From NCBI GenBank assembly GCA_963804045.1, contig CAWDOR010000029.1, positions 15,380 through 79,379 on the forward strand: DNA of 64,000 bases, in the 5' to 3' direction. Shown here piece by piece: positions 25,005 to 44,462 of the stretch (positions are counted from its first letter, which is position 1; each line of letters opens with the position of its first letter). The stretch comes from an uncultured Alphaproteobacteria bacterium (GTDB lineage: Bacteria > Pseudomonadota > Alphaproteobacteria > Rhizobiales > Beijerinckiaceae). A model generated the notes under the pieces. The model was not told the origin of the DNA, made no database searches, and saw only the letters and a list, made by a program, of their open reading frames with translations. The translations under genes and the position numbers were made by a program.

Positions 25005-26302
25005 ACAATGTCCCGACCCCGCCAGCGACAGGCGCGATCCGCCCCGATGAAGCGCAGGTGGCCAAGGCCATGCGCGGTTTTCTTGCCGACATCGGGCCGT
25101 CTTCGGCTCTGGCGCTGGATTCCTGCATCCATTGCGGGCGCTGCGCCGAGGCTTGCCAATTCTATGTGCGGAGCGGCGACCCACGCTATACGCCGATCCA
25201 CAAGGTCGCGCCTTTCAAGCAGGCCTATGAGCGCGAGATGGGGCCCTTCGCCTTCGTCTACAAACTGCTCGGCCTGACGCCGAAGATCAGCGCTGACGAG
25301 CTGATGCAATGGCAGGAGCTGCTTTATGATTCCTGCAACATGTGCGGGCGCTGTTCGCTGATCTGCCCGATGGGAATCGATATCGCCGATCTCGTCGAAC
25401 AGGCGCGGCACGGCATGTTTGTCGCGGGAATGACGCCGCCCGATTTTCTGGGCATTCTCGCCGAAAAGGAAAAAGCCACAGGCAGTCCCTTCGGGATGAC
25501 CACGCCGCAATTGCAGGATGCGCTGCATGACATTGGCGCGAAACATGGGGTCGTCATGCATGTCGACGAGGCGAGGGCGGAGATCGTCCCGACCATATCT
25601 TCCATCGACCTGAAGACTTATCCCTCTTCCATGGCGGCAATCGCCAAAATCCTCAATCACATGGGCGCATCCTGGTCCTTTCGCACCGATGGCTTCGACG
25701 CCGACAACGTCGCCTTGACGGCGGGCGACCGCGTGGGTCAGCGCAAGATCACGCTCGGCATTGTCAAGGCTGCCATCGCCTGCGGCGCCAAAACGGTTGT
25801 CATGCCGGAATGCGGCCATTCCTTTACCGAGATGCGCTGGGAGGCCGCCAATGCTTACGGAGGCGACCTGCCGTTCCGGATCGTGCAGATCACCGAGTTG
25901 CTCGCTGAAGGCCTCGCGGACGGAAAAATCCGCGTGAACACGGCTCCGCAAACGGCGACCTATCACGACGCCTGCCAGCTGTCCCGGCGTGGCGGCGCCA
26001 CGGCGGCGCCGCGAGCGATCCTTGAAAGTCTCGGGGTCGATTTGCACGAGATGGAGGACGCCGGCGAAGAAAACTGGTGCTGCGGCGGCGGCGGCGGCGT
26101 CGCCCTCATCAAGCGCGCGCAGCCGTTGCGCGACAAGGCGTTCGCAATCAAGCAGCGGCAGGTCGAGGCGACCGGCGCCGCCAAGGTGTTCACCTCCTGC
26201 TCAGGCTGCCGGCAAACGCTGGACCATGGCGGCAAGGCCGCAGGCTGGGACAAGGACGTCGCCAGCCTGCTGGAACTGGTCGCCGATAACCTCAAGGATT
26301 AA
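25001..26302 (+). CDS. Isp2-like HdrD-type iron-sulfur protein (2x[4Fe-4S] + CCG domains)
   Basis: Real start MNNVPTPP at 25001. CIHCGRCAEAC and CNMCGRCSLICP ferredoxin motifs, CCGGGGG and CSGC (CCG domains). The upstream 420 aa of the 855-aa track ORF is out-of-frame shadow. Confidence 0.8.
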   Translation: MNNVPTPPATGAIRPDEAQVAKAMRGFLADIGPSSALALDSCIHCGRCAEACQFYVRSGDPRYTPIHKVAPFKQAYEREMGPFAFVYKLLGLTPKISADELMQWQELLYDSCNMCGRCSLICPMGIDIADLVEQARHGMFVAGMTPPDFLGILAEKEKATGSPFGMTTPQLQDALHDIGAKHGVVMHVDEARAEIVPTISSIDLKTYPSSMAAIAKILNHMGASWSFRTDGFDADNVALTAGDRVGQRKITLGIVKAAIACGAKTVVMPECGHSFTEMRWEAANAYGGDLPFRIVQITELLAEGLADGKIRVNTAPQTATYHDACQLSRRGGATAAPRAILESLGVDLHEMEDAGEENWCCGGGGGVALIKRAQPLRDKAFAIKQRQVEATGAAKVFTSCSGCRQTLDHGGKAAGWDKDVASLLELVADNLKD

Positions 26303-26305
26303 TTC

Positions 26306-28048
26306 ATGACCACCCGGACCATCGTCGTCGATCCGATCACCCGGATCGAAGGGCATTTGCGGATCGAGGCCGAGATCGACGCCGCGGGAAATGTCGTCAG
26401 GGCGATCAGCGCGGGCACCCAGGTGCGCGGCATCGAGATCATATTGCGCGATCGCGATCCTCGCGACGCCTGGGCTTTCGCGCAGCGCATCTGCGGCGTC
26501 TGCACCCTGGTGCATGGGCTCGCCTCGGTGCGGGCGGTGGAGGATGCGCTCGCCATAAAAATTCCAGCGAATGCAGAACTGATCCGTAACCTGATGGTCG
26601 GCGCCCAGATGCTGCAGGATCATGTCATCCATTTCTATCATCTTCAGGCGCTGGATTGGGTCAATCCTCTCAATGCGCTGAAGGCCGACCCGCAGGCCGC
26701 CGCGCGAATCGCCGCCGGGCTCGGCTATCGCGACACGTCGGTCGCCTCGTTCGCCGCTGCGCAAGACCGGCTGAAGGGTTTTGTGAAGTCTGGGCAGCTG
26801 GGAATATTTTCCAACGGCTGGTGGGGTCATCCTGACTACAAGCTCGCGCCGGAAGTCGACCTGATCGCCCTGTCGCATTATTTTGAGGCCCTGGCCTGGC
26901 AACGGGAAATCGGCGAAGTCCTGACCATATTCGGCGGCAAGAATCCACATCCCAACGTCGCCGTCGGCGGCGCGCCTTGCGCCATCGCCATCGACGCCAA
27001 GCTTCCAGGCGGCGGCGACGCGACCGCGGTGTCGATGACCGGACTGATCCGGGTGCGTCAATTGATCGAGACCATGAGGAGTTTCGTCGAGGGCGTCTAT
27101 CTTCCCGATCTGGTCGCCATCGGCAGCGGCTACAAGGACTGGTTTTCACGCGGAGAAGGCGTCGGCAATTTCATGACCTATGGCGATTTCGCCGGTCCGA
27201 CGGCTGGCAATGGGTTTGGTGTGCCGCGCGGCGTCGTGCTCGGTCGCGATCTCACAAAAATCCTTTCCGTCGATCTTGAGGACCCGGAGCAGATCCAGGA
27301 ATATGTCGCGCATTCCTGGTACAAATACGCCAAGGGCCAGAACGGGGCGCTGCATCCATTTGAGGGCGAAACGGCCCTCGACTATACCGGGCCGCCGCCA
27401 CCGTTCGAACATCTCGATCCTGGCGGCGCCTATTCCTGGGTGAAGGCGCCGCGTTGGCGCGGCAAGCCGATGGAGGTCGGGCCACTGGCTCGACTGGCGC
27501 TGCTGCATGCCGCCGGAGACGCTCCCGCGAAGGCGCTGACGGCGGAAACGCTCGGGCGGCTGGGGTTACCCTTCGACGCCATTTATTCGACCTTGGGCCG
27601 CATCCTGGCGCGCGGAATCGAAAGCAAGTTGCTGGTCGACCGGATGGCCGGCTGGCACGACAGCCTGATGGCCAATATCGCGGCCGGCGATTTGCGGACG
27701 TTCAATGATGAAAAATGGGAGCCCGCGAGCTGGCCGAGACATGCCCAGGGCATTGGCACGATCGAGGGGCCGCGCGGGGCGCTGGGGCATTGGATCGTCA
27801 TCGACGAGGGCAAGATCAAGAATTACCAGGCCGTCGTGCCGACGACATGGAACGCCGGTCCGCAAGACGACAGGGGGCAGCATGGCCCCTATGAGGCGGC
27901 GCTGATGGACGGACGCCATAAATTGGCGCTGGCGGACCAGCCCCTGGAAGTGCTGCGCACGATTCACAGTTTCGATCCCTGCATGGCCTGCGCCGCGCAT
28001 GTGTTCGATCCCGCTGGCGTTGAGGTCGGGCAGGTGACGATCCGCTAA
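26306..28048 (+). CDS. [NiFe] hydrogenase large subunit
   Basis: 580 aa. N-terminal RIEGH and RICGVC. C-terminal DPCMACAAH followed by the cleavable extension VFDPAGVEVGQVTIR. Confidence 0.95.
   Translation: MTTRTIVVDPITRIEGHLRIEAEIDAAGNVVRAISAGTQVRGIEIILRDRDPRDAWAFAQRICGVCTLVHGLASVRAVEDALAIKIPANAELIRNLMVGAQMLQDHVIHFYHLQALDWVNPLNALKADPQAAARIAAGLGYRDTSVASFAAAQDRLKGFVKSGQLGIFSNGWWGHPDYKLAPEVDLIALSHYFEALAWQREIGEVLTIFGGKNPHPNVAVGGAPCAIAIDAKLPGGGDATAVSMTGLIRVRQLIETMRSFVEGVYLPDLVAIGSGYKDWFSRGEGVGNFMTYGDFAGPTAGNGFGVPRGVVLGRDLTKILSVDLEDPEQIQEYVAHSWYKYAKGQNGALHPFEGETALDYTGPPPPFEHLDPGGAYSWVKAPRWRGKPMEVGPLARLALLHAAGDAPAKALTAETLGRLGLPFDAIYSTLGRILARGIESKLLVDRMAGWHDSLMANIAAGDLRTFNDEKWEPASWPRHAQGIGTIEGPRGALGHWIVIDEGKIKNYQAVVPTTWNAGPQDDRGQHGPYEAALMDGRHKLALADQPLEVLRTIHSFDPCMACAAHVFDPAGVEVGQVTIR
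28003..28048 (+). repeat. Direct repeat copy A: last 14 codons plus stop of the hydrogenase large subunit
   Basis: gttcgatcccgcTggcgtTgaggtcgggcaggtgacgatccgctAa. 43/46 identical to 42407-42452. Confidence 0.9.
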
Positions 28049-28436
28049 TGAATCCAGCCGAGTTCGGCAGCGGCGTGGCCTCGATGGCTCCGGCGGCGCC
28101 GAACAGGGCTATGTTCTGGCGCGGCGGACTCGTGCCGGATGGCAAATATCTCTGCATCTTCGGAGTGTTCGCTGGTCGGCAAGACTAAATCCGACCCATC
28201 AGCAGCAAGATGACGACGATAAGAAGAGCGAGGCCAATGCCGCACTTGGGAAATAGCCCCAATTTGCGCTGTGAGGCCATGTCGGAAACGTGCTGACCAG
28301 GCGGCGCTGCGATTGAACGATTCAGGCTCAGCGCGCAGAAAAGCATTCAGTTTGTTCGCGGATATGACGGCGTTAAGGGCTCAACGTCCTGGCGCCCGGA
28401 GGGGAGCGCCAGGGCGATCTCGGCTTGCGCGGCCGC

Positions 28437-28619
28437 TTACTTTGCCAGGACTTCCTTCAGCGCGTCTTTCACGCCACCAATGACGTTCTGGGCCTTGCCA
28501 ACGGCCACGTCGTTTTTGCCTTCGGCGACCAGCTTGGCGTCGCCGAGCGTTTTGCCGGCGGCCTCCTTGACGGCGCCGGCGGCCTGCTTGGCGATTCCGG
28601 CGAGACGATCCTTGTCCAT
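28437..28619 (-). CDS. csbD: CsbD-family general stress protein
   Basis: Internal ATG at 28619 with AGGAG SD. The protein is MDKDRLAGIAKQAAGAVKEAAGKTLGDAKLVAEGKNDVAVGKAQNVIGGVKDALKEVLAK. Confidence 0.8.
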   Translation of the reverse strand: MDKDRLAGIAKQAAGAVKEAAGKTLGDAKLVAEGKNDVAVGKAQNVIGGVKDALKEVLAK

Positions 28620-28745
28620 GTGTATTTGACTCCTGTTGACCCTGATTTCGCGAATTTTATTTGAGCGCGAACCCGCGGACCGCACACGGTCGGCGGACGC
28701 AATGAAACAATCGCGATCACCATCTAATTCCAATGCAAGCTCAGC

Positions 28746-28767
28746 CGCCAGCGTCGGAATTTACTCA
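28746..28767 (-). promoter_or_regulatory. Conserved 22-nt motif copy 9 (upstream of csbD)
   Basis: Minus strand reads TGAGTAAATTCCGACGCTGGCG. It lies 126 nt upstream of the ATG at 28619. Confidence 0.65.
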
Positions 28768-28781
28768 GAGCGCAAGAGGAT

Positions 28782-29087
28782 TCAGATCTCCGGCCAGCGG
28801 GCATGAGCAGTTTCCAATGCAGCTTTGCGCACGATCAAGCAGCGGCAAGTCGGCCACTGGTTCGGTGCAGCGCCACGCCGCGTGATGTGCGGACGCTTGC
28901 GCCGCGCGCTCCAGCAATGAGGAGGTTTCGAACCTTCCTCGATGAAATGCCACGAGGCCAGCGCCATTTCGCAAATTTCCGAGGCGTAAGCAATTTGTTC
29001 GGCGGCCCAGTCGCGGAACGTCGAACGGAAGCCGTGTGTCGTGAGATCGTCCCGCCCCATGCGTCGCAGCGTCATCAAGAGCGCCAT
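28782..29087 (-). pseudogene. Tyrosine recombinase (phage/P4-type integrase) C-terminal remnant
   Basis: ALLMTLRRMGRDDLTTHGFRSTFRDWAAE is the catalytic His/Arg region of integrases. There are no N-terminal domains. The expected ...AYRR...LLERR... tail appears only in another frame (ORF 28765..29121). Confidence 0.7.
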
Positions 29088-29180
29088 ATTCGGCGCGCTG
29101 GTTGAATCGAAGCGTGATCAACCAGTCTCCACCAGGACGAGCGCGCGGGCGACCTCAGGGTGGTGAGGTCGGGCTCGGAT

Positions 29181-29414
29181 TCACTCGGCAGCGCTGGGCT
29201 TCACGGGAACAGCAGACTTTTCAGGAGCGCTGGAATCCGCAATGCCTCGATAGGCCGTTACCGGCCAGGACAACGCTCTTGGCAGGTCTTCCAATGTGAT
29301 CGCGACGAATTGCGACGCGGGGGCTGAGCTCCATTTTGCTTTGATCGTGGGCGCTAACGCGACGCCTACGCCGACGAAATAGGCAATCATCAACAAGCTG
29401 ACAATCATACGCAT
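29181..29414 (-). CDS. Small membrane-anchored hypothetical protein
   Basis: 77 aa. Strong SD GGAGGAGGAAACG-ATG. N-terminal TM helix MRMIVSLLMIAYFVGVGVALA. Confidence 0.5.
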   Translation of the reverse strand: MRMIVSLLMIAYFVGVGVALAPTIKAKWSSAPASQFVAITLEDLPRALSWPVTAYRGIADSSAPEKSAVPVKPSAAE

Positions 29415-29557
29415 CGTTTCCTCCTCCAGGGGCGGCTGGTTCTCGTCACGCCCGAAATCTTCCGATGCCGTCGCAATGCGCCGGCGCCGTTGAAACGACT
29501 GTCCAGGGGAACAGCCCGTCGCTGCCTCCGTACTGAGGAAAGCGGGCGGACGGTCAG

Positions 29558-29785
29558 CTAGTTCTGGGCGATCATCCGTTGTCGGCTCGAATGGCCAACT
29601 GGCGGGATGGGCGCAGGGGCGCTTGGCGTCCGCTCGGGTTCGATCGTCACTGTCATGATCACGTGATCCTGCAGGTCGGAATGCCGGGCGGAATTCGCGG
29701 CGGCGCTATTGCTGTCGGAATTCCACGACGCAGCAATCACAAGAGCGCCGCCCAGGACTAAAACGATAAATAGTCGCCTGAACAT
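29558..29785 (-). CDS. Small secreted/membrane hypothetical protein
   Basis: Internal ATG at 29785. MFRRLFIVLVLGGALVIAASW is signal-like. 75 aa. The longer track ORF begins inside the motif. Confidence 0.45.
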   Translation of the reverse strand: MFRRLFIVLVLGGALVIAASWNSDSNSAAANSARHSDLQDHVIMTVTIEPERTPSAPAPIPPVGHSSRQRMIAQN

Positions 29786-29856
29786 TTTGCTTACCCCACC
29801 GAAACCATGCCTCACGCAGTCTTCAGGCGATGAACTATATGCGCCAGCAACAACGG

Positions 29857-29878
29857 CGACAGGATCGGAAAACACTCA
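29857..29878 (-). promoter_or_regulatory. Conserved 22-nt motif copy 10
   Basis: Minus strand reads TGAGTGTTTTCCGATCCTGTCG. It lies 71 nt upstream of the ATG at 29785. Confidence 0.6.
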
Positions 29879-30131
29879 CGTTCGATTCAAGTGATACGGG
29901 GTCGGCGCGTTACGCACGCACAATTCCGCCTTGGACGCGCCGGATTCAGAAAATCGAGCGCTACGCCATCAGACGCGTCCAAATCGATGCGCCATCACGG
30001 ACCGGCAGAACAAGACGCCGGCGCCTTCGACGAGTTCAAGATACGCGGCTGTTGCGCCTACCAGGAAAGCGAAGAACAGCAGCGGGGCGACCTCGCGCGC
30101 GAGAATTGAGACGACTTCAATTTGGTTCGAT

Positions 30132-30153
30132 TGAGTAATTTCCGAGCCTGTCG
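30132..30153 (+). promoter_or_regulatory. Conserved 22-nt motif copy 11 (upstream of ADH-ALDH-pntAB block)
   Basis: Plus strand reads TGAGTAATTTCCGAGCCTGTCG. It lies 112 nt upstream of the ATG at 30266. Confidence 0.65.
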
Positions 30154-30265
30154 TGCGCAGACCGAACGGCGCAGCGTGTCGGCCGTGGAGGGACAACCAA
30201 GCGTCTCCACCCCGTTCGCAATCACCAAGGCGCCAACGATGAACGCAATTGCCAAGCTGTCGACG

Positions 30266-31303
30266 ATGAAAGCCCTCGTCTATCATGGGCCAGGAAAGAA
30301 GAAGTTCGAAGACCATGCGAAGCCGGAGGTCCTCGCCCCCACGGACGCGATCGTGAAGATCACCAAGACGACCATATGCGGTACGGATCTGCACATTCTC
30401 AAGGGCGATCTGCCGAGTTGCCAACCCGGCCGCATCCTTGGCCACGAAGGCGTCGGCGTCATAGATAGCGTCGGCTCTGCCGTCACGGCTTTCAAAGCAG
30501 GCGACCGTGTTCTGATTTCCTGCGTCACCGCCTGCGGCAAGTGTGAATATTGCCGTAAAGGCATATTTTCGCACTGCGCCACCGGCGGCTGGATTCTCGG
30601 AAATACGATCGATGGAACCCAGGCGGAGTTCGTGCGCACGCCCTATGCCGACACCAGCCTCTATCCGATTCCCGATGGCTCGGATGAAGAAGCGCTGGTG
30701 ATGCTGAGCGACATCCTCCCGACCGGCTTCGAGTGCGGCGTGCTCAACGGCAAGGTTCAGCCCGGCGCCACACTGGCGATCGTCGGCTCGGGACCGATAG
30801 GTCTCGCCGCGTTGCTGACCGCCCAGTTTTATTCGCCGGGCGAGATCATCATGATCGACCTCGACGACAACCGGCTCGAAGTCGCCAGGCGCTTCGGCGC
30901 CACCAAAACCATCAACAGCGCTGACGGCAAGGCGGTCGAGACGCTGATGAAAATAACCGGCAATCGCGGCGTCGACACCGCCATCGAGGCGGTCGGCATC
31001 CCCGCGACCTTCGAGCTCTGCGAGCAGATCATCGCTCCGGGCGGTGTGATCGCCAATATCGGCGTGCATGGCGCGCCAGTGACGTTGCATCTGGAACATT
31101 TGTGGGATCGCAACATCAGCATCACCACGCAACTCGTTGACACCGCCAGCACACCGATGCTGCTCAAGGTCCTCAAAGCCCAGAAAATCGACCCGAAGCT
31201 GCTGATCACTCATCGATTCAAGCTGGACGATATCCTCCAGGCTTACGAAACCTTCGCAAACGCCGCCAAGACCAAGGCGCTCAAAGTGATCATCGAGGCT
31301 TAA
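30266..31303 (+). CDS. Zn-dependent NAD(P) alcohol dehydrogenase (medium-chain, secondary-ADH-like)
   Basis: MKALVYHGPGK..., ICGTDLH, GHEGVG, C-x2-C-x2-C (CGKCEYC), Rossmann GSGPIGL. An alternative ATG lies at 30239. Confidence 0.9.
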   Translation: MKALVYHGPGKKKFEDHAKPEVLAPTDAIVKITKTTICGTDLHILKGDLPSCQPGRILGHEGVGVIDSVGSAVTAFKAGDRVLISCVTACGKCEYCRKGIFSHCATGGWILGNTIDGTQAEFVRTPYADTSLYPIPDGSDEEALVMLSDILPTGFECGVLNGKVQPGATLAIVGSGPIGLAALLTAQFYSPGEIIMIDLDDNRLEVARRFGATKTINSADGKAVETLMKITGNRGVDTAIEAVGIPATFELCEQIIAPGGVIANIGVHGAPVTLHLEHLWDRNISITTQLVDTASTPMLLKVLKAQKIDPKLLITHRFKLDDILQAYETFANAAKTKALKVIIEA

Positions 31304-31475
31304 CTCGCTTCGCGAAGCAAACGAGGGTCGTGCGCGGCGGTCTTTCCTCCGACGTCGAGGCCAGTGAACCGCGCAGACGCTGGGAATGAAGTTCTATCCG
31401 CATTTTCATCAAGCAATCGCCGGATGGGAATACTCCCGTCAATCGGGGCTAGAGCCCCATCGAAAGGACCTGCAT

Positions 31476-32858
31476 ATGGCCTACCAAAGCTTCAATCCTG
31501 CCACCGGCAAGCTCATAAAGAACTTTGACCAACTGACCGACAAACAGCTCGATGCGAAGCTCGCCACAGCTGCGAAATGTTTCCTTAGCTGGAAACAGAA
31601 GAGCTATGCCGAGCGCGCGGTCGTCGTCGCCAAGGCGGCAGAAATCCTGCACGCCAGGGCCGATGAATTCGCCCAGATCGAGACTCTCGAAATGGGCAAG
31701 CGGATCGGCGAGGCGCGGGGCGAGGTAGAATTCAGCTCGAACATCCTCGCCTACTACGCCAAGAACGCGGAGCGTTTCCTGGCGCCGACGAAACTGCATC
31801 CTTCCATTGGCGAGGCCCACATGGAGAGCAGCCCGATCGGCGTGGTCTTCTGCGTGGAGCCCTGGAATTTCCCTTACTACCAGCTGGCGCGCGTCGCTGG
31901 CCCGCATCTGATGGCGGGCAACGTTCTGGTCGTGAAACACGCGGGCTGCGTCCCGCAATGCGCCATCGCCTTTGAAAAGCTCCTGCTCGATGCTGGAGCG
32001 CCCGTGGGGCTCTATACAAATCTGCTGATCTCGCACGCGCAATCGGACATCGTCATCGATGATCCCCGCATCAAGGGCGTTGCGCTCACCGGGAGCGTCC
32101 CGGCAGGCAGGGACATTGCCGCGCGCGCCGGCAAGAATCTCAAGCCATCATCCATGGAACTCGGCGGCAGCGACGCCTTCATCGTGCTCGAAGACGCCGA
32201 CCTCGACCACACGATCAAGTGGGCCGTCTGGGGACGCATGTACAACACTGGACAGACCTGTTGCGCGGCGAAGCGATTCATCGTCGTCGACAAGCTCGCC
32301 GACAAGTTCCTGGAGCGGTTTTCGGCCGCGCTCAGCGCGCTTAAGGCGGGCGATCCGAAGGACGAGACGACGACGATGGGTCCGCTTTCCAGCGAAGCTG
32401 CCTTGCTGCAACTTCTCGAACAGGTCAAGCAGGCGGTCGCCCACGGCGCGAAAGTGCTGATCGGCGGCAAGCGGGTCGATCGTCCCGGCTCCTTCATGCA
32501 GCCGACGATCCTGACCGACATCAAGCCGGAAAATCCAGCCTTCCGCGACGAGTTCTTTGGTCCGGTGGCGCTGTTCTTCCGCGTGAAGGACGAAGAGGCG
32601 GCCATCGTCCTCGCCAACGATTCCGATTTCGGGCTCGGCGGCTCGGTGTTCACCAAGGATACCGCGCGAGGCAAGCGCGTGGCGAGCCGGATCGACACCG
32701 GCATGATGTTCATCAACAACATCAGCTGGTCGGACGCTGAACTACCGTTCGGCGGCGTCAAGGATTCCGGCTACGGGCGCGAACTCGGCGACATGGGCAT
32801 CCAGCAATTCGTCAACAAGAAGCTGATCCGCACCGCCGTGCTCGAAGCACCCTTGTAA
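31476..32858 (+). CDS. NAD(P)-dependent aldehyde / succinate-semialdehyde dehydrogenase
   Basis: MAYQSFNPATGK..., WNFPYYQ, ELGGSDA, QTCCAAKR (catalytic Cys), EEFGPV-like FFGPV. AAGGA SD. Confidence 0.9.
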   Translation: MAYQSFNPATGKLIKNFDQLTDKQLDAKLATAAKCFLSWKQKSYAERAVVVAKAAEILHARADEFAQIETLEMGKRIGEARGEVEFSSNILAYYAKNAERFLAPTKLHPSIGEAHMESSPIGVVFCVEPWNFPYYQLARVAGPHLMAGNVLVVKHAGCVPQCAIAFEKLLLDAGAPVGLYTNLLISHAQSDIVIDDPRIKGVALTGSVPAGRDIAARAGKNLKPSSMELGGSDAFIVLEDADLDHTIKWAVWGRMYNTGQTCCAAKRFIVVDKLADKFLERFSAALSALKAGDPKDETTTMGPLSSEAALLQLLEQVKQAVAHGAKVLIGGKRVDRPGSFMQPTILTDIKPENPAFRDEFFGPVALFFRVKDEEAAIVLANDSDFGLGGSVFTKDTARGKRVASRIDTGMMFINNISWSDAELPFGGVKDSGYGRELGDMGIQQFVNKKLIRTAVLEAPL

Positions 32859-32990
32859 GGAATCCGGACCGGCTCCGGCCGGGACGATCAGGCGACGAGG
32901 CGCGCTGCTGTTTGGGCGCGCCTCGCCGGCCGCCTCAACGCCTTGCGCCGGTCCATCCATCCTGGAAGTCCGGCAGGAACCGGAGCCGCC

Positions 32991-34502: not shown

Positions 34503-34511
34503 GGAGTCGCC

Positions 34512-35963
34512 ATGCCGACCATCATCCCGCAACTCGTCATTGGCTCGGTCGATCTCGTCGCCGCGTTTCTGTTCATGTTTGGCCTCCAGCGCATGTCTTC
34601 GCCGGTGACGGCGCCTTCGGGAATCAAGGTCGCAGGCTTCGGCATGCTGGTCGCTGTCGCCGCGAGTTTTCTTTACGCCTTCGACGTTGACGCGGCCGCC
34701 AAACCATTTCTTCCAGTCAATTTCGCGCTCGCCGCCGTCGCGCTGATCATCGGCGGCGGCCTGGCCTGGTGGGTCGGTCGCAAGGTGGCGATGACCGCCA
34801 TGCCGCAGATGGTGGCGATCTATAACGGCATGGGCGGCGGCGCAGCCGGCGCCATTGCCGCTGTCGAACTGTTCGGCTCCAAATACCAGGGGACCACGCA
34901 GCTGATGGTGACGCTGCTGGGCGCCTTGATCGGCGCCATCTCCTTGTCGGGGTCGCTGATCGCATGGGCGAAACTTGACGGCGTGCTCAACAAGCCGTTT
35001 CGCATGCGTGGCCAGCAGGTGCTGAACGGCGTGTTCATTCTGGCCTGTGTCTGCGTCGGCGGCGCCATCGTCTACGCGGCGCAGGGTGGCGTCCATTCAC
35101 TCCTGGACATGCGCCAGCTGATCTACCTCTTCTTCGGACTTACCCTGCTCTTCGGCGTTCTGATGACGCTGCCGATCGGCGGCGCGGACATGCCCGTCGT
35201 CATATCCATCTATAACGCCTTCACCGGCCTGGCCGTCGGCCTTGAAGGCTTCGTCCTGCAAAACCCGGCGCTGATGATCGCCGGCATGGTGGTCGGCGCC
35301 GCGGGCATGCTTCTCACACTGTTGATGGCCAAGGCGATGAACCGCTCGGTGGCGAACGTCCTCTTCACCAATTTCGGCGTGGTCGCCAAGCACAAGCATG
35401 GAGACGTCAAGGGCGAACTCAAGCCGGTCGAAGCGGGCGACGCCGGCATTTTCATGCGCTACGCCAAAGAGGTGATCATTGTGCCGGGCTATGGCCTCGC
35501 CGTGGCGCAGGGGCAGCAAAAACTTTACGAACTGGTCAAGCTGCTGCAGGCCGCCGGCGTCATCGTCAAATTCGCCATCCATCCGGTTGCCGGGCGCATG
35601 CCCGGCCAGATGGACGTGTTGCTCGCCGAAGCCGGCGTGCCCTATGACATGATTTTCCAGCTCGAAGACATCAATGACGAATTCGCCAGCGCCGATGTCG
35701 CGCTGGTCATCGGCGCCAATGACGTGGTGAATCCGGCAGCGCGCAGCGACAAATCCTCGCCGATTTTCGGCATGCCCATCCTCAACGCCGACAAGGCGAA
35801 ACAGGTTTACGTGGTCAAGCGCGGCCAGGGCAAGGGCTACGCCGGGATCGTCAACGCGCTGTTCTATTCCGACAATTGCAACATGGTCTACGGCGACGCC
35901 TCGGCCGTGCTGACCAAGATGATCGAGGCGGTGCGCGGCCTCGGTTCGAAAGCCGCCGCTTGA
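34512..35963 (+). CDS. pntB: NAD(P) transhydrogenase subunit beta
   Basis: 483 aa. Multi-TM N-terminal part and the dIII NADP(H) domain (VPGYGLAVAQ, HPVAGRMPGQMDVLLAEA, GANDVVNPAA). Confidence 0.95.
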   Translation: MPTIIPQLVIGSVDLVAAFLFMFGLQRMSSPVTAPSGIKVAGFGMLVAVAASFLYAFDVDAAAKPFLPVNFALAAVALIIGGGLAWWVGRKVAMTAMPQMVAIYNGMGGGAAGAIAAVELFGSKYQGTTQLMVTLLGALIGAISLSGSLIAWAKLDGVLNKPFRMRGQQVLNGVFILACVCVGGAIVYAAQGGVHSLLDMRQLIYLFFGLTLLFGVLMTLPIGGADMPVVISIYNAFTGLAVGLEGFVLQNPALMIAGMVVGAAGMLLTLLMAKAMNRSVANVLFTNFGVVAKHKHGDVKGELKPVEAGDAGIFMRYAKEVIIVPGYGLAVAQGQQKLYELVKLLQAAGVIVKFAIHPVAGRMPGQMDVLLAEAGVPYDMIFQLEDINDEFASADVALVIGANDVVNPAARSDKSSPIFGMPILNADKAKQVYVVKRGQGKGYAGIVNALFYSDNCNMVYGDASAVLTKMIEAVRGLGSKAAA

Positions 35964-36023
35964 TCGACTTCATTCAAGGACATTTGAATTGAAACGCCAA
36001 CACAAGAGAATATCGACGCGGCG

Positions 36024-36209
36024 GTGAAGCTCGAGCGCTACACGGTGTTGGGTGAGGCGCTGGGAAGGCTGAAGCATTTCGAAATCCTCGCGCGATCCGC
36101 GAAAGGAAAGGTCTTCGAATTTCATGTCGAACTGGATGGGGCAATCGACAAGAAGAAGCCTGCCGACATTCGCGAGCGCAAGTGGGCGTCGGCGATTCGC
36201 GAACGTTAA
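36024..36209 (+). CDS. Small PepSY-like hypothetical protein (weak call)
   Basis: 61-aa GTG-start ORF with ...GKVFEFHVELDGAIDKK..., reminiscent of a PepSY half-domain. It is followed by a good terminator. Confidence 0.3.
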   Translation: MKLERYTVLGEALGRLKHFEILARSAKGKVFEFHVELDGAIDKKKPADIRERKWASAIRER

Positions 36210-36260
36210 CGAGAGTATCCGCGCCTTCGCCATCTGACTTGACCGCGCTGCTGCGGTCGT

Positions 36261-36297
36261 GGCGGTTGCGTCCTCCCCGCAACCGCCGCCCATTTTT
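36261..36297 (+). terminator. Intrinsic terminator-like hairpin
   Basis: Stem ggcggttgcg, loop tcctccc, stem cgcaaccgcc (10 bp), followed by gcccaTTTTT. Confidence 0.55.
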
Positions 36298-36559
36298 CCA
36301 GTTCTTCGCTGCAAAGGGCGACCTTCGCATTTACGCTCGCCTTGAGCGTCCTGAGAGCGGGCTTCGCCCCTGGGCGATTTGAAGGCGCCCGGTCCCCGTG
36401 CCATGAAGGACCGGTGGACGTTTCCACTGAAAAGGATCGCCGATGATCATGCATGACTGGACCGCCCGGCACTGGGTCGTTGCCGCTTTGATCATCGGAC
36501 TCACGGTTGGCGCGTTTATCCTGCGTTGGGCGTAGAGCCGAAATACACGGGCGAGTCCG

Positions 36560-37948
36560 ATGGCTGAATTTGCAGGCATGCCAAGTCCCACACGCTATTG
36601 GTCGGCGCTCGCGATCTGGCTGGCGCTGACCATGGCTGTGCTCGACGGGGCGATCGCCAATGTGGCGCTGCCCACGATCGCGCGAGAACTTTCCGCCATT
36701 CCCGCTTACGCTGTCTGGGTCGTGAACGCTTATCAGCTCGCGACCGTCGTTTCCCTGCTGCCACTGGCGGCGCTCGGCGAAGAAATCGGCTACCGCCGCA
36801 TATTTCTGGGCGGGATCATCGCATTTACGGCCGCTTCGGCGGCTTGCGCTCTTGCTCAAAGCCTGCCGATGCTCATATTCACGCGCGTGATCCAGGGCTT
36901 TGGCGCGGCGGGAATCATGAGCGTCAACGGCGCGCTCTTGCGGTTTACCTATCCCCCGAATTTGCTGGGCCGGGGCGTCGGATTGAACGCGCTGGTCGTT
37001 TCGGCCGCCGCGGCCTTCGGGCCGACCGTCGCTTCGGGCGTGCTGGCGCTGGGGCCATGGGAATGGCTGTTTGCGATCAATGTGCCCATCGGGGTCGCAA
37101 CCCTCTTCATAGGGCGCAAGACACTGCCGTCGAGCCCCAGGGAGGGGAAGTTCGATCTTGTCGGCGCCATCCTGAATGTCTTGACGTTTGGGCTCGGGTT
37201 TACCGGCATCGACGCCCTGACGCACGGGGGCGATGCCGGGCTCGGCGCCTCGGAACTCGTGCTGGCGACGCTGAGCGGCGTCGCCCTGGTTTTGCGATCC
37301 AATTCCCAGCCGAAGCCTTTGGCGCCGATCGACTTGTTGAAAAACAAGCTGTTCGCGATGTCGGTCGTCACCTCGATCGCCTCGTTCAGCGCCCAAATGC
37401 TGGCTTTCGTTTCGCTGCCCTTCTACCTGCAAGGCATTCTGCACCGGAGCCAGGTCGAGACCGGGCTGTTGATGACGCCCTGGCCCGTGGCGGCGGGCGT
37501 TGCGGCCTCGATCGCGGGGCGCCTGGCGGACAAATTTTCGGCCGCGATCCTCAGTGCGGCCGGGCTCGCGATTCTCGGGTTGGGACTGCTTGCGATGGGC
37601 CTTCTGCCGACGGAGACGACGCCGGTTGCGATAGCGGGATTGATGGCGATCTGCGGGCTGGGTTTCGGCTTCTTCCAGTCTCCGAACAATCGCACCATGC
37701 TTTCGGCGGCCCCGCTGTCGCGAAGCGGGGCGGCGGGGGGGATGCTCGCAACATCGAGGCTGACAGGTCAGACCATCGGCGCGACGATTGCGGCAATCAC
37801 CTTTCGCCTTGCGGCTCGCGCCGAATTGGTCGCCCTGGTTGTCGCGGCCTTGTTCGCCTTCGCGGCCGCTGTGGCCAGCCTATCGCGCCTTCGCTACGAG
37901 CATGCAGTCGAGGCGCCTGAACGCGGGCCGGTTCCGGATGCGCCGTGA
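36560..37948 (+). CDS. MFS transporter (DHA2/EmrB-like, 14-TM type)
   Basis: 462 aa with LDGAIANVALPTIA, a motif A-like GEEIGYRRIF, and many TM helices. Confidence 0.9.
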   Translation: MAEFAGMPSPTRYWSALAIWLALTMAVLDGAIANVALPTIARELSAIPAYAVWVVNAYQLATVVSLLPLAALGEEIGYRRIFLGGIIAFTAASAACALAQSLPMLIFTRVIQGFGAAGIMSVNGALLRFTYPPNLLGRGVGLNALVVSAAAAFGPTVASGVLALGPWEWLFAINVPIGVATLFIGRKTLPSSPREGKFDLVGAILNVLTFGLGFTGIDALTHGGDAGLGASELVLATLSGVALVLRSNSQPKPLAPIDLLKNKLFAMSVVTSIASFSAQMLAFVSLPFYLQGILHRSQVETGLLMTPWPVAAGVAASIAGRLADKFSAAILSAAGLAILGLGLLAMGLLPTETTPVAIAGLMAICGLGFGFFQSPNNRTMLSAAPLSRSGAAGGMLATSRLTGQTIGATIAAITFRLAARAELVALVVAALFAFAAAVASLSRLRYEHAVEAPERGPVPDAP

Positions 37949-37966
37949 ACGCGCGGCTCGGCCCGG

Positions 37967-38455
37967 TCACCGCGCTTGGCGCCAGCCTGCGGCTTGGCCC
38001 GGTGACCGTTCCGACGCCGCAGATACCCCATAGTCCAGGACATAGTCGCGCAGGGCGATCGCGTCGCAGCGCGCGTTGTGCGGCGTTTCGCTCAATGTCT
38101 CGGAATGGAACAGCGGCAAGTCCAGCAGCTCAAATCTCAACCTTGGCAGAGCCAAACGCCGACCGGGGCTGGTCACCATCAACAGCGCCAGATGCGCGAT
38201 GTCTTCCGGCCAATCGGAAATCACGACCGGCTCAGCGTCGCCGCGCAAATATTCGGCCAATTTTCTGGTCGCCTCGGGACGGGAAATCGGCGGCTTCTGC
38301 AGGACCGGGAGCACGCGTTCGATCACCCAGGGCTCGGGCTTCGCGCAAGGCAGCGCTTCGTAAAATGCGGCGGCCTGCCGGTCCTCGGGCGCCAGCGCGA
38401 TGGAGATCAGATCGCCGCCAAAGCCATTGAACTCAGCATCAAGAAAATACCGCAT
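37967..38455 (-). CDS. DEDDh-type 3'-5' exonuclease-like protein
   Basis: Internal ATG at 38455. MRYFLDAEFNGFGGDLISIAL (DxE), ISDWPEDI, PHNARCDAIAL (H-x4-D). 162 aa. Confidence 0.6.
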   Translation of the reverse strand: MRYFLDAEFNGFGGDLISIALAPEDRQAAAFYEALPCAKPEPWVIERVLPVLQKPPISRPEATRKLAEYLRGDAEPVVISDWPEDIAHLALLMVTSPGRRLALPRLRFELLDLPLFHSETLSETPHNARCDAIALRDYVLDYGVSAASERSPGQAAGWRQAR

Positions 38456-38561
38456 GGTCGCCTCTTCGAGATGGCGGCGGCCATTGACGCCGGGGCCACA
38501 ATTGCGGCGCGGATCAACAATCTTGCGCCCGAGCGGCATGTTGAGCGCCAACCCGCGGCAA

Positions 38562-38583
38562 GGAAAGGAACGGAATCTACTCA
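38562..38583 (-). promoter_or_regulatory. Conserved 22-nt motif copy 12
   Basis: Minus strand reads TGAGTAGATTCCGTTCCTTTCC. It lies 106 nt upstream of the ATG at 38455. Confidence 0.55.
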
Positions 38584-38885
38584 TGCTCCCGCCGGAACGG
38601 TGGATTGCGGCGTCCATCGAATGGACGATTGACGCGACTGACGTGGGTATTTTCCGAGGCTGCCGCATTCCGCGCGCCGCACCTTAACCTGAAGCGCTTC
38701 CGCACTCGGAGACGGACAGGGCTGTCCGGCCTGGCCGCCATTGGGGGGCGACACACTGATCCTTACCGCCGGCGTTCCGGGACCCGATGCAGCCCGTCCA
38801 GCGTTGATGGAATTTCGTGGCCGTCGCCTTTGCCGGCGACGGTTCCGTCGACAGGATTTTTTCGCTCAACGAAGGAGATGAGACC

Positions 38886-39470
38886 ATGTCCATGCAGCAA
38901 CAAACGCAGAATTCCGGGCCGGCGGACACGCTTGTCCAGTCGGTTCATGATCGTTGGGGCCTGTTTCTGGCCGAGGGGATCATTTTATGCGTGCTCGGGG
39001 CCGGCGCCATCGTCGTTCCGCCGATCGCCGGACTGGCCACGACGGTCTTCCTGGGTTGGCTGTTCCTGGTCGCGGGACTGGTCGGCCTGTTTTTCACCCT
39101 TCGCGCCCGATCGGCGCCGGGGTTCGTCTGGGCGCTGCTGTCAGCTGCCGCCGCGGTCGTCGCCGGCGCCGTTCTGCTGTGGAATCCGTTTGAAGGTCTC
39201 GCGACGCTGACTCTCGTTCTGACTGCCTATTTCATCGTCGATGGCGTCGCGATCATTTTTCTCGCCATTGCCCATCGCCGTGAACTCACAGGCAAATGGG
39301 AATGGATGCTGGTGAACGGCGTCATGGATCTGATTCTCGCCGGCATCATCATCTCCGGATCTCCGGGGACGCTCGTCTGGGCGCTCGGACTCCTTGTCGG
39401 CATCGACCTGCTGTTCGGCGGCGCGGCGCTGATCGCCATGGCTTTGGACTGGCGCAAGGCGGGCAGATAG
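38886..39470 (+). CDS. HdeD-family (DUF308) acid-resistance membrane protein
   Basis: ATG at 38886 with AAGGAG SD. Six TM segments with repeated W/G-rich DUF308 pattern (GIILCVLGAGAIV, GWLFLVAGLVGL). Confidence 0.8.
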   Translation: MSMQQQTQNSGPADTLVQSVHDRWGLFLAEGIILCVLGAGAIVVPPIAGLATTVFLGWLFLVAGLVGLFFTLRARSAPGFVWALLSAAAAVVAGAVLLWNPFEGLATLTLVLTAYFIVDGVAIIFLAIAHRRELTGKWEWMLVNGVMDLILAGIIISGSPGTLVWALGLLVGIDLLFGGAALIAMALDWRKAGR

Positions 39471-39519
39471 TCGATCGGATGAACGAGCCAGATCGCCCAT
39501 CGATCGCCGCCGGGCCCCC

Positions 39520-39541
39520 TGAGTAGATTCCGACGCTGGCG
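39520..39541 (+). promoter_or_regulatory. Conserved 22-nt motif copy 13 (upstream of RR-kinase operon)
   Basis: Plus strand reads TGAGTAGATTCCGACGCTGGCG. It lies 90 nt upstream of the ATG at 39632. Confidence 0.65.
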
Positions 39542-39631
39542 GCGCAGACGTTTGGGGCGCATGGCTTCGCGCTTGTTTCATTCGCAGCTTGAAATCAGAA
39601 CGGGGGCCACGACGTGCGCAAAAAGAAGGCG

Positions 39632-40045
39632 ATGAAAGCAGGATTGCCGATGACAGGGCTTCGCATCCTCGTCGTTGATGACGACGCCGTGATCGGTGAA
39701 TTGCTGGGAGAAATGCTTGAAGAGATGGGCCATTCCGTTTGCGCCGTCGCCGCCACCGAGCTCGACGCGGTGGCCGGCGCCGCCGAGCACAGGCCCGACC
39801 TGATGATGGTCGATGTGCGGTTGGGCCAGGGAAGCGGCATCGTCGCCATGGATGAAATCCTGCGCTCCGGGTTCGTCCTGCATTTTTTCATGAGCGGCAA
39901 TGTCGCAAAATTCAGGGCGCTCAGGCCCGACGACTTCGTGCTCGAAAAGCCGTTCCAGGAAGCCGATCTCGGTTGCGCCATAACCCGGGCGCTGGAGTCG
40001 GCCGGCGCCCAACGCATCGCTCACGCCAGGGGGGCGCGCCTGTGA
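39632..40045 (+). CDS. Single-domain response regulator (receiver only)
   Basis: MKAGLPMTGLRILVVDDD..., MMVDVRL (phospho-Asp), FFMSGN, LEKPF. AGAAGG SD. Paralogous to 48974..49339 and 51207..51572. Confidence 0.85.
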   Translation: MKAGLPMTGLRILVVDDDAVIGELLGEMLEEMGHSVCAVAATELDAVAGAAEHRPDLMMVDVRLGQGSGIVAMDEILRSGFVLHFFMSGNVAKFRALRPDDFVLEKPFQEADLGCAITRALESAGAQRIAHARGARL

Positions 40046-40052
40046 AAATTCT

Positions 40053-42377
40053 TTGACCGCGTCCGATCGGGCGGAAGAGGCTGTCCTGGAAGCGGGCGCT
40101 CTGCAGCGTGCGATTTTCAACAGCGCCAATTTCTCGAGCATCGCCACCGACGCGAAAGGCGTGATCCAGATCTTCAACGTCGGCGCCGAGCGCATGCTGG
40201 GCTATGCGGCCGCCGAAGTGGTGAACACGATCACCCCGGCCGACATTTCCGATCCCAAAGAGGTCATCGCCCGGGCCAAGACGCTGAGCTCGGAGCTCGG
40301 AACCATGATCACTCCGGGGTTCGAAGCCCTGGTTTTCAAGGCGTCCCGCGGCATCGAGGATATCTACGAACTGACCTATATCCGCAAGGATGGGAGTCGC
40401 TTCCCGGCGGTCGTGTCCGTCACGGCGTTACGTGACATGCAGAACGTCATCATCGGCTATCTGTTGATCGGCACCGACAATACCGCGCGCAAGCGGGTGG
40501 AAGCCGAACAGGCAAAGCTCGACCAGCGCCTTCGCGACCAGCAATTCTATACGCGCTCGCTGATTGAATCGAGCATCGACCCGCTGATCACCACGGACCC
40601 CGCCGGGTTCATCACCGACGTCAACAAGCAAATGGAGGCGCTGACGGGATGGACGCGCGACGAATTGATCGGCTCGCCGTTCAAGACCCATTTCACCGAT
40701 CCCGAGCGGGCCGATGCGGGAATCAAACTCGTGCTGACCGACAAGAAAGTCACCGACTTCGAGTTGACGGCCATCGACCGCAGCGGCAAGAAAACCGTCG
40801 TGTCCTATAACGCGACCACGATTTACGACCGGCAGCGCAAATTGCAGGGCGTTTTCGCAGCCGCGCGTGACATCACCGAAAGCAAGCTTGTCGAAGCGGA
40901 ACTTCATCAAGCGAGAGCCGCTGCCGAAAGCGCCAGCGAGACCAAGTCGGATTTTCTGGCCAGCATGAGCCACGAAATCCGCACGCCGGTGAATTCGATC
41001 ATCGGCGTCGCCGCACTGCTTGCGAAAACAACGCTCACATCAGAGCAAAGAAAATATGTGGAAATATTCAGTCGCGCCGGCGAAAACCTGCTCCTGCTCA
41101 TCAACGACATTCTTGATCTGTCGAAAGTGGAAGCGTCGCAGCTGGATCTGGAGCGCACCGAATTCTCGCCGACCGAGCTGGTGGACAAAACCCTGGAAAT
41201 GCTGGCGGTGCGCGCCGAACAAAAGGGCCTGGCCCTGGTCTGCGAGATCGCGCCGGGAACGCCAAAAAATATTGTCGGCGACCCCACCAGGGTGCAGCAG
41301 GTGCTCCTCAATCTGCTCGGCAACGCCATCAAGTTTACGGAAACCGGCGAAGTGTCGCTGCGCGTTTCGCCTGACGGGGTGTCGCCAACACTGCGCTTCA
41401 CGATTGCGGACACCGGAATCGGAATTCCGGCGGAAAAGCTGGCGCATGTGTTCGAGCGCTTCACGCAGGCGGACTCATCCACCACGCGCCGATATGGGGG
41501 CACCGGACTGGGCCTGACGATTTCACGGCAGCTGGTGGAGTTGATGGGCGGACGCATCTGGGTCGAAAGCGAGCTTGGCAAGGGCAGCGTGTTTTCGTTC
41601 GCCGCGCCGTTTGAAATCCTGACGGGCGCCAAGCGGGAAACGGCCCCGCGCATCGGCGACAAGCCCGCGCCGCCGATACTGGCGCTGAACATCCTTCTCG
41701 TGGAGGATTATCCCGACAACCGCACGATCACGCTCGCCTATTTGCAGGATACGCCCTATCGGATCGAGATCGCGGAAAATGGGGCGATTGCGTTTGAAAA
41801 GTTCGTCCTGGGGCATTTCGATCTCGTCCTCATGGACCGGCAGATGCCGGTCATGGACGGGCTGACCGCGACGCGGGCGATCCGGACATGGGAAAAGGCC
41901 AACCACCGTCCGCCCACGCCGATCATCGCATTGACGGCCGCCGCCCTGAAAGGCGATCGCGAAAAATGCGAGGAAGCAGGCTGCACCGCTTATCTTACCA
42001 AGCCCATCAAGCAAGAGGTGCTGCTCCAGGCCATCAGGGACTACTCCCGGGCGCCGGGGCCGCCAGCGCTTGCGGTTGTCCGGGGACAGGACAGGGACAG
42101 CGGCGGGAGACGCGTAGAACGCAACGCCGAGTTCCTGCGAAACCGCAAGCGCGATGTCGCCACAATGCGCGGCGCCCTGGATCGCCAGGACTTCGCGACG
42201 GTAGCGCTGCTGTCGCACGGCATGCGCGGCGCCGGAGGAATGTTCGGATTTCCTGTCATCACCGAAATCGGAGCCGCCCTGGAAACTGCGGCGGACGACC
42301 TGGACGATGCGGTTTCCCATAAATGGGTCAATGAATTGTCCAGCTATCTGGATGGCGTCGAAGCGACGGCCATTTAG
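40053..42377 (+). CDS. Hybrid sensor histidine kinase (PAS-PAS-HisKA-HATPase-REC-HPt)
   Basis: 774 aa. H-box FLASMSHEIRTPVNSI, N/G boxes LLGNAIKFT and DTGIGI, GGTGLGL. Receiver LVEDYPDN...LMDRQMPVMDG...KP. HPt-like SHGMRGAGG. Confidence 0.9.
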   Translation: MTASDRAEEAVLEAGALQRAIFNSANFSSIATDAKGVIQIFNVGAERMLGYAAAEVVNTITPADISDPKEVIARAKTLSSELGTMITPGFEALVFKASRGIEDIYELTYIRKDGSRFPAVVSVTALRDMQNVIIGYLLIGTDNTARKRVEAEQAKLDQRLRDQQFYTRSLIESSIDPLITTDPAGFITDVNKQMEALTGWTRDELIGSPFKTHFTDPERADAGIKLVLTDKKVTDFELTAIDRSGKKTVVSYNATTIYDRQRKLQGVFAAARDITESKLVEAELHQARAAAESASETKSDFLASMSHEIRTPVNSIIGVAALLAKTTLTSEQRKYVEIFSRAGENLLLLINDILDLSKVEASQLDLERTEFSPTELVDKTLEMLAVRAEQKGLALVCEIAPGTPKNIVGDPTRVQQVLLNLLGNAIKFTETGEVSLRVSPDGVSPTLRFTIADTGIGIPAEKLAHVFERFTQADSSTTRRYGGTGLGLTISRQLVELMGGRIWVESELGKGSVFSFAAPFEILTGAKRETAPRIGDKPAPPILALNILLVEDYPDNRTITLAYLQDTPYRIEIAENGAIAFEKFVLGHFDLVLMDRQMPVMDGLTATRAIRTWEKANHRPPTPIIALTAAALKGDREKCEEAGCTAYLTKPIKQEVLLQAIRDYSRAPGPPALAVVRGQDRDSGGRRVERNAEFLRNRKRDVATMRGALDRQDFATVALLSHGMRGAGGMFGFPVITEIGAALETAADDLDDAVSHKWVNELSSYLDGVEATAI

Positions 42378-42406
42378 AGGGCCGCTCGGACTTGCCTTGT
42401 TCCCCC

Positions 42407-42452
42407 GTTCGATCCCGCCGGCGTCGAGGTCGGGCAGGTGACGATCCGCTGA
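42407..42452 (+). repeat. Direct repeat copy B: orphan copy of the hydrogenase large-subunit 3' end
   Basis: gttcgatcccgcCggcgtCgaggtcgggcaggtgacgatccgctGa would encode FDPAGVEVGQVTIR*. It differs from 28003-28048 only at two synonymous third positions and TAA>TGA. Confidence 0.9.
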
Positions 42453-42462
42453 CGCGGCGTCG

Positions 42463-44393: not shown

Positions 44394-44462
44394 CCGGGTG
44401 CGCCGGGCTGCCTATCGTGGCGGAAGATGAAACGCCGCGAAAGAATAGGTGGGGATGACGTC

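Follow-up and report, generated by a model that had tools for sequence, protein, structure and literature searches.

The 64000-nt stretch analysed here ('the window'), from an uncultured alphaproteobacterium of the Beijerinckiaceae (contig CAWDOR010000029.1, positions 15380–79379), carries a [NiFe] hydrogenase operon whose last gene, hynL, encodes the large subunit. The final 46 nt of hynL occur a second time 14.4 kb downstream, directly behind a gene for a hybrid histidine kinase. The segment between the two copies holds metabolic, transport and regulatory genes and the remnant of a tyrosine integrase (Table 1). A preliminary description, made from the sequence of the window alone, had taken this segment for an island integrated into the 3′ end of hynL. 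We compared both copies, the segment and its flanks with related loci, which are cited below by their labels (L082, L139 and so on), and from this comparison we propose a different origin for the second copy.

The duplicated 3′ end of hynL

The copies at 28003–28048 and 42407–42452 had been described as a 46-nt duplication with three differences, and this description held: 43 of the 46 positions are the same, the flanking 60 nt are dissimilar on both sides, and homology stops exactly at the block ends of both copies. Such a pair is expected by chance ~2e-12 times in 64 kb, and the duplication is real. From copy 1 to copy 2 the differences are GCT/GCC, GTT/GTC and TAA/TGA. All three are silent, an outcome with a chance probability of 0.017–0.045, and the relatives L091, L088, L082 and L135 have the copy-2 states at the three variable sites. 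In HynL, the motif DPCMACAAH (DPCxxCxxH) is followed by a tail of 15 residues, 14 of which are encoded by the repeat. This tail is highly variable among relatives and corresponds to the extension cut by the endopeptidase in HycI/HybD-type maturation.

A second copy of the tail was found in none of ~90 other hynL loci (±10 kb each), in which the longest second match of a locus to its own tail was 18 nt, and the tail-coding pattern gave 0 matches in viral contigs. Copy 2 is in frame with the hybrid kinase, behind the TAG stop codon of the kinase. The orphan tail begins 10 codons past this TAG, and read-through (42375–42452) would append RAARTCLVPPFDPAGVEVGQVTIR; the in-frame placement is probably a coincidence. 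Window-specific changes upstream of copy 1 were 2.2x denser in the last 122 codons of hynL, compared with 1.35x in other taxa. A donor tract in this part of hynL was considered and rejected, as the difference was estimated not to be significant.

The ancestral junction downstream of hynL

The closest relatives found are metagenome contigs with HynL proteins 83–92% identical to that of the window, and all of them share its left flank of acyl-CoA dehydrogenase genes, CoA-transferase gene and hydrogenase operon. In L097, the hynL stop codon is followed by 10 nt, a 22-nt motif, the DUF3775 gene and cbpM, and in L085 by 10 nt, the motif and the DUF3775 leader. In L088, hynL is joined directly to the PRC-barrel gene, after which the genes of window positions 44444–53391 follow in the same order. 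These relatives with an empty site, marked by the motif and the DUF3775 gene or leader in L097 and L085 and by the PRC-barrel gene in L088, are other species-level lineages and not near-identical strains. The DUF3775 gene had been proposed as the ancestral neighbour of hynL, with the expectation that some relative would have hynL directly before it; L097 (gene) and L085 (leader) bear this out. Because the layout of L097 and L085 matches the context of copy 2, copy 2 and its right flank represent the ancestral end of hynL with 14.4 kb interposed. Judged from this synteny, the second copy is the original end of hynL, displaced 14.4 kb downstream. The DNA directly after the hynL stop codon differs among the window, L082, L085, L088, L089, L090, L091 and L135.

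Three relatives have a DUF3775 gene cut independently to its last 20–28 codons (L139, 20153–20245; L082, 11756–11813; L135, 233–299), and L139 has a mini-ORF (open reading frame) of 22 codons, MDALSAFDQSCRDFEEREEPGI, to which motif and leader are fused.

Age of the orphaned end

The closest relative by synonymous divergence (dS, determined by the Nei–Gojobori method) is L139, with a dS of ~0.44. At the right-hand junction of L139, the kinase stop codon is followed by a spacer of 26 nt (the first 20 nt of which align with the window), the motif, the DUF3775 leader, an internally deleted DUF3775 gene and cbpM-cbpA. No hydrogenase stub is present at this kinase/motif junction. Compared with L139, the window has an extra 57 nt, made up of CTTGTTCCCCC and the stub; they lie after the spacer and before the 10 nt that lead up to the motif. 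If the stub had been non-coding since the split of the window from L139, ~10 substitutions would be expected, and the probability of three or fewer is 0.01. The stub is younger than this split, because it has too few changes for that age. It follows that the adjacency of the kinase block and motif-DUF3775 predates the stub, which is awkward for an arrival of the segment as a circle in hynL. That all of the differences are silent and that the stub is undecayed suggests that the two tails come from two functional alleles, joined recently.

Just to the right of the stub, cbpM and cbpA have dS values to L139 of 0.80–0.83, approximately 2-fold those of all other genes, which hints that the right arm may be of different origin and that a homologous crossover may lie to the right of the stub. 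Terminator and promoter scans at both junctions gave nothing informative.

Origin of the segment

The preliminary description had suggested a look for k-mer or GC-skew deviation across the segment. In composition the segment does not stand out: the tetranucleotide distance of the segment (0.100) is within the range of other 14.4-kb segments (0.105±0.012), and its GC content and GC content at third codon positions also match the rest of the window. The gene order of L139 is that of the window, with the alcohol dehydrogenase (ADH), aldehyde dehydrogenase (ALDH), pntAA, pntAB and pntB genes and, further on, the response regulator and hybrid kinase genes. The corresponding dS values are 0.44 (ADH), 0.45 (ALDH), 0.33 (pntAA), 0.49 (pntAB), 0.38 (pntB), 0.43 (response regulator) and 0.55 (hybrid kinase), and bigHK, a gene 10 kb outside the segment, gave 0.45. 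Orthologues of the hdeD gene lie 3.7 kb (L082) and 0.4 kb (L090) downstream of hynL. The hdeD dS was 0.43 to L082, where flanking genes gave 0.46–0.57, and 0.66 to L090, where flanking genes gave 0.57–0.72. In a plasmid database, the ADH and pnt genes had distant matches only.

The left end of the segment holds, within the first ~130 nt, a fragment of an MCRA (oleate hydratase) gene. It matched L002 (blastn, E 1.4e-9) and L090 (E 3e-5), with collinear tblastn pieces of 69% identity over 13 amino acids and 42% over 19 amino acids, and in both relatives the MCRA gene is complete and lies downstream of hynL, at a distance of 1.2 kb (L090) or ~6.4 kb (L002). Because the segment starts with this fragment, the hynL/segment junction looks like a decayed native neighbourhood and not like the end of an element. 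The block is native, since its composition and dS are like those of the flanks, it is shared with L139, and the MCRA fragment comes from a native neighbour of hynL. From these comparisons, the segment as a whole is best described as a patchwork of modules native to the clade and not as a single unit acquired from elsewhere. The block from the PRC-barrel gene to bigHK lies to the left of the segment in L139 and to its right in the window.

The integrase remnant

The remnant had been placed at 28782–29087. It is real, although its extent proved larger, to approximately 29231. In-frame stretches of 45–92 amino acids match integrase fragments (E 1e-17 to 1e-13), many of which carry PF00589. The N-terminal two-thirds are missing, and no other integrase-like stretch occurs in the window. 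Pfam gave no match to the remnant, the stretch being too short, and it was the homology search that identified it. The last 16 residues (SAPEKSAVPVKPSAAE) of the small ORF at 29181–29414 are translated integrase pseudogene (29181–29231) and align to KAGKEHRVPLSDRALE of intact fragments.

The 3′ end of the remnant faces the hynL tail, with the DUF3309 and csbD genes in between. Among intact relatives of the integrase in IMG/VR, the 5′ end is within a few hundred nucleotides of the viral-contig end, reading inward, at 41 of 80 loci, and five of these 41 have a tRNA-Ser gene just upstream on the same strand. The orientation of the remnant is opposite to this usual placement in its family. Searches at the segment found no other mobility gene, no excisionase and, at the segment ends, no arm-type repeats of ≥10 nt. 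A tRNA-like attachment site was also considered, but GTTCGATCC at the block start forms no T-arm (judged by eye).

A proposed scar of recombination between related lineages

We propose, with a probability of approx. 0.5, that the stub is the scar of a 3′-end displacement caused by recombination of two related lineages that differed after hynL. In the first arrangement (A type), which is seen in relatives, hynL and its stop codon are followed by the 10 nt, the 22-nt motif, DUF3775 and cbpM-cbpA. In the second (B type), an inferred chromosome, hynL would be followed by the MCRA remnant, DUF3309, csbD, ADH-ALDH-pntAB, hdeD and the response regulator–kinase pair, and then by motif-DUF3775 as in L139. 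The window would consist of a B-type left arm and an A-type right arm with the joint 46 nt inside the A-type hynL, such that the B-type end would keep hynL intact and the A-type end would be left as an orphan. The joint at 42406/42407 would be non-homologous and the other crossover homologous. The latter may have taken place in DUF3775-cbpM-cbpA, bringing a short A-type piece into a B-type chromosome, which is the version we favour, or alternatively in hynL, in which case the 14.4-kb block would have been imported. The mechanism would be homology-facilitated illegitimate recombination, and the integrase remnant would be unrelated debris in a plasticity zone. Identity between the copies would end at the stop codon because the two arrangements diverge there, every lineage examined being different after the hynL stop. 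The locus combines what such a displacement should leave, namely a conserved gene with hypervariable DNA right after it and an orphaned resident end in its ancestral context, with both ends from functional alleles. Orphaned 3′ ends also occur in Rhs and type VI secretion system (T6SS) loci, where the same model was put forward to explain them (PMC5361080).

Several points weigh against this proposal. Compared with insertion by an integrase, homology-facilitated illegitimate recombination is a rare event (PMC5361080), and the integrase remnant is within 0.7–1.2 kb of the left repeat. No genome was found in which the MCRA remnant follows hynL without a stub, as at the B-type left junction, and no hydrogenase lies within 10 kb of the block in L139. 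The joint at 42406/42407 shows no clear microhomology or flanking homology, and 11 nt next to it are unexplained. The polarity of the three differences is a weak test, since relatives match copy 2 but the tail evolves fast in all lineages. Finally, the raised dS of cbpM and cbpA could reflect recombination in L139, whose cbpA is nearer to that of L132 (dS 0.46).

In the explicit form of the integrated-island reading, a 14.4-kb island with a replacement hynL 3′ end in its attP site would have been inserted by a tyrosine integrase, through a crossover within the first 12 nt of the block, followed by decay of the integrase and domestication of the cargo. Part of this reading stands. Copy 2 is the displaced native end, and the signature resembles that of e14 and icd/icdC in Escherichia coli: direct repeats bracket the segment, hynL is intact, the copies are alike only up to the stop codon, and their differences are all silent. 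Moreover, the pseudogene 0.7–1.2 kb from the left repeat is a true integrase, the three variant states are all to the right of a possible single crossover, and there are relatives with the empty-site layout. However, the cargo is flank-like in dS and composition, and the segment begins on the left with a piece of MCRA, which is a native neighbour of hynL. L139 has the same order, from ADH to the response regulator–kinase pair, up to the same motif-DUF3775 junction without a stub, yet the stub is younger than the split. This comes near to the shared gene order without flanking repeats that the preliminary description had itself named as contrary evidence. No excisionase, other mobility gene or arm-type repeat accompanies the remnant, the right 'arm' would be kinase coding sequence, and the orientation of the remnant is opposite to that of intact relatives, which have the 5′ end at the boundary (41/80, five behind tRNA-Ser). 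No second tail copy was found in the 10-kb flanks of ~90 hynL loci and no tail-coding sequence in viral contigs. Taken together, we consider an e14-type insertion doubtful. In a broader scenario, recombination or integration in the clade would favour the part of hynL that encodes the propeptide, an undescribed integrative element carrying a replacement hydrogenase tail would use this site, and modules of a stress regulon marked by the motif (which would include the hydrogenase operon) would be reshuffled there; this is speculative and seems to us quite unlikely.

An event within one genome would also yield silent differences alone, as expected if both copies were functional for a time: a tandem duplication would have placed two hydrogenase operons around the segment, and the second would then have been deleted except for its last 46 nt. 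Exchanges of adjacent blocks are indeed seen in the gene order of the clade (hydrogenase operon against the acyl-CoA dehydrogenase–CoA-transferase cluster, and the PRC-to-bigHK block against the segment). However, a tblastn search of 28049–44400 with all of the hydrogenase proteins found only the stub, so that the decayed second operon upstream of 42407, named in the preliminary description as a finding that would speak against an island, is not there, and only 29 nt separate an intact kinase gene from the stub. Since the genes to the left of the operon are conserved with those of L082, L085 and L090, there is no room for the precursor, and the exact layout of stop codon, 10 nt and motif retained at the stub is unlikely to result from random deletion. 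Such a duplication and loss is therefore improbable. That the repeat is a chance similarity or the product of a chimaeric assembly is barely credible: although the right junction is seen in this window only, the chance expectation is ~2e-12, L081, an independent contig from a metagenome, has the same left junction (99.5% identity over 5.7 kb), and no sequence is shared at the right joint that might lead an assembler astray. Recombination between A-type and B-type lineages remains our preferred explanation.

The hydrogenase operon and the 22-nt motif

The operon upstream of the segment is an Isp-type (group 1e-like) [NiFe] uptake hydrogenase operon, the name of the subgroup being taken from the gene layout. 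It has the order small subunit, isp1, isp2 and large subunit, the motif DPCxxCxxH with a cleavable tail, and a protease of the HycI family. The layout hynS-isp1-isp2-hynL occurs in Thiocapsa, Allochromatium and Aquifex. A 126-aa ORF (21043–21423) located between the CoA-transferase gene and the operon has a match to the enoyl-CoA hydratase profile that is limited to positions 1–49, and it looks like a gene fragment. Its site is occupied by csbD and an IS110 transposase gene in L082 and L083, and L084 is without the insertion sequence. The operon is located downstream of a MaoC–acyl-CoA dehydrogenase–acyl-CoA dehydrogenase–CoA-transferase cluster in Rhodopila-like metagenome-assembled genomes (MAGs; L002 and L003) and in L089, and upstream of this cluster in the window (16000–28048), L082, L085 and L090. 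Since its orientation does not change between the two layouts, the difference is an exchange of adjacent blocks.

The motif core TGAGTANNTTCCGA has 20 copies in the window, compared with 0.06 expected. Six of them are in the segment (at ≤1 mismatch), where five had been counted previously, and most segment modules have the motif in front. Sites outside the segment include 21943–21964 and those at 2728, 3501, 13753, 20964, 21021, 44372, 48320, 48381, 50060, 50137 and 51679. The motif is always 30–160 nt upstream of a gene and oriented like that gene, and one copy precedes hypC. The hydrogenase operon thus appears to belong to a putative motif regulon together with csbD, DUF308, PRC-barrel, DUF1236, ferritin and ADH genes. 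The motif is also found after hynL in the Rhodopila-like MAGs L002 and L004. It is unlike the EcfG promoter (GGAAC-N16-17-CGTT) and has no Rfam match.

Gene content of the segment and its flanks

The gene content listed in the preliminary description was correct except for an 'exonuclease' at 37967–38668, which has no Pfam or NCBIfam match (Table 1). The operon from ADH to pntB shows 88–89% nucleotide identity with L137–L141, including L139, and is found in other contexts in L137, L138, L140 and L141. In the window, the stop codon TGA that separates pntAA from pntAB in L139 is TGT (34100–34120), giving a single ORF of 519 aa; close pntA homologues are all split (375 aa plus 114–119 aa). Pieces homologous to the DUF3309 and csbD genes follow pntB in L139. 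Family searches gave no match for the small ORFs at 29181–29414 and 29558–29875, and exact-protein look-ups for CbpA and PntB returned no record. A tRNA-Pro(cgg) called by ARAGORN at 40259–40339 is inside the PAS region of the kinase gene; Rfam detects no tRNA anywhere in the window, and the call is very likely a false positive.

Table 1 Features of the hydrogenase locus, the 14.4-kb segment and the right flank (window coordinates)
Feature	Position	Strand	Remarks
Upstream hydrogenase operon	22021..26302	+	PF01455, PF01750, PF04809, PF01058+PF14720, PF02754; order same in L082–L090
hypC	22021–22305	+	Operon member
hupD protease	22305–22838	+	Operon member
hupH	22838–23242	+	Operon member
hynS, small subunit	23242–24333	+	Operon member
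isp1, membrane subunit	24330–25004	+	Operon member
isp2, Fe-S/CCG subunit	~25001–26302	+	Operon member
hynL, [NiFe] hydrogenase large subunit, 580 aa	26306..28048	+	PF00374, E 2e-207; intact; last operon gene
Repeat copy 1 (t*)	28003..28048	+	Functional hynL 3′ end, FDPAGVEVGQVTIR plus TAA; lineage-specific states GCT, GTT, TAA
MCRA/oleate hydratase pseudogene fragment	28071..28176	+	~residues 55–96, frameshift; directly after hynL stop
DUF3309 small gene	28185–28346	-	Pfam in L081 gene call
csbD	28437–28733	-	PF05532; motif copy at 28754–28767
Tyrosine-integrase pseudogene	28782..29231 (approx.)	-	~150 aa of C-terminal catalytic domain; two in-frame stops, at least one frameshift
Small ORF 1	29181–29414	-	Overlaps integrase remnant; homologous DNA upstream of ADH in L139
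Small ORF 2	29558–29875	-	Homologous DNA upstream of ADH in L139
Zn-ADH	30239–31303	+	Pfam; first gene of motif-preceded operon
ALDH	31386–32858	+	Pfam
pntA (pntAA-pntAB fused)	32943–34502	+	Pfam; stop codon lost
pntB	34512–35963	+	Pfam
DHA2-type MFS transporter	36560–37948	+	Pfam
233-aa ORF	37967–38668	-	No Pfam or NCBIfam match
DUF308/hdeD-like gene	38817–39470	+	Orthologues after hynL in L082, L090
Response regulator	39614–40045	+	Pfam; 85% nucleotide identity to L139
PAS hybrid histidine kinase with Hpt domain	40053–42377	+	Pfam; 85% nucleotide identity to L139
Spacer after kinase stop	42378..42406	+	42378–42395 homologous to L139 spacer; 42396–42406 (CTTGTTCCCCC) without identified source, adjoins novel joint
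Repeat copy 2 (t)	42407..42452	+	Orphaned hynL 3′ end; GCC, GTC, TGA as in relatives
Ancestral hynL downstream junction	42453..42484	+	10-nt spacer 42453–42462 plus 22-nt motif 42463–42484; layout as in L097, L085
DUF3775 gene	42654 (likely start)–43088	+	Pfam; synteny in L097, L098, L132, L139
cbpM-like MerR_2 gene	43043–43381	-	Pfam; convergent to DUF3775
cbpA-like DnaJ gene	43378–44271	-	Pfam; synteny in L097, L098, L132, L139

Significance and comparison with known systems

The stub is a clean, datable marker of remodelling downstream of a conserved operon, and it reveals the ancestral order hynL-DUF3775. The zone after hynL is a hot spot, since every sampled lineage differs there. The swapped tail is the propeptide that the maturation protease cuts off, and such joints are easily tolerated at this place. 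The locus also calls for caution, as native DNA can be mistaken for an integrated island when it is flanked by direct repeats and contains a piece of an integrase gene. What it records is ordinary genome plasticity, and knowledge of hydrogenases and of mobile elements is unchanged by it. Scars of this kind are already known; the present one is a further example, affecting a new gene.

The likeness to e14 of E. coli K-12, which we checked, is close in outline: an element of ~15 kb between two gene 3′ ends, with the gene intact, the displaced end at the far junction and an integrase inside. The element starts 165 nt before the icd stop codon, the orphan icdC is identical at 153 of 165 positions with 11 of the 12 differences at third positions, and identity ends at the stop codon; intE is 3.3 kb inside the element on the opposite strand. 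However, e14 has an intact intE, xisE and foreign phage genes, whereas the present segment has an integrase fragment of ~150 aa and clade-native cargo. The repeated block is 165 nt in e14 and 46 nt here, and here a relative, L139, has the block and its right neighbour without the repeat.

A constant upstream gene followed by variable DNA, and an incoming gene end that displaces the resident end with no need for an active integrase, are also features of Rhs, contact-dependent inhibition (CDI) and T6SS effector–immunity loci, in which the modules are likewise common to related strains (PMC5361080). In those loci, diversifying selection acts on the exchange of toxin tips and immunity genes; here the exchanged end encodes the same peptide, the displaced piece is only 46 nt long, no selective logic for the exchange is evident, and the illegitimate joint is a proposed one.

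Finally, the hupL elements of cyanobacteria are direct-repeat elements in a [NiFe] uptake hydrogenase large-subunit gene that are excised by a tyrosine recombinase, XisC (PMC4874684). They split the reading frame, need to be excised for hupL to be restored and carry an intact xis gene (PMC4874684). In contrast, hynL needs no excision, being intact through its stop codon, and its operon, in an alphaproteobacterial host, is of the Isp type; the recombinase here is dead.

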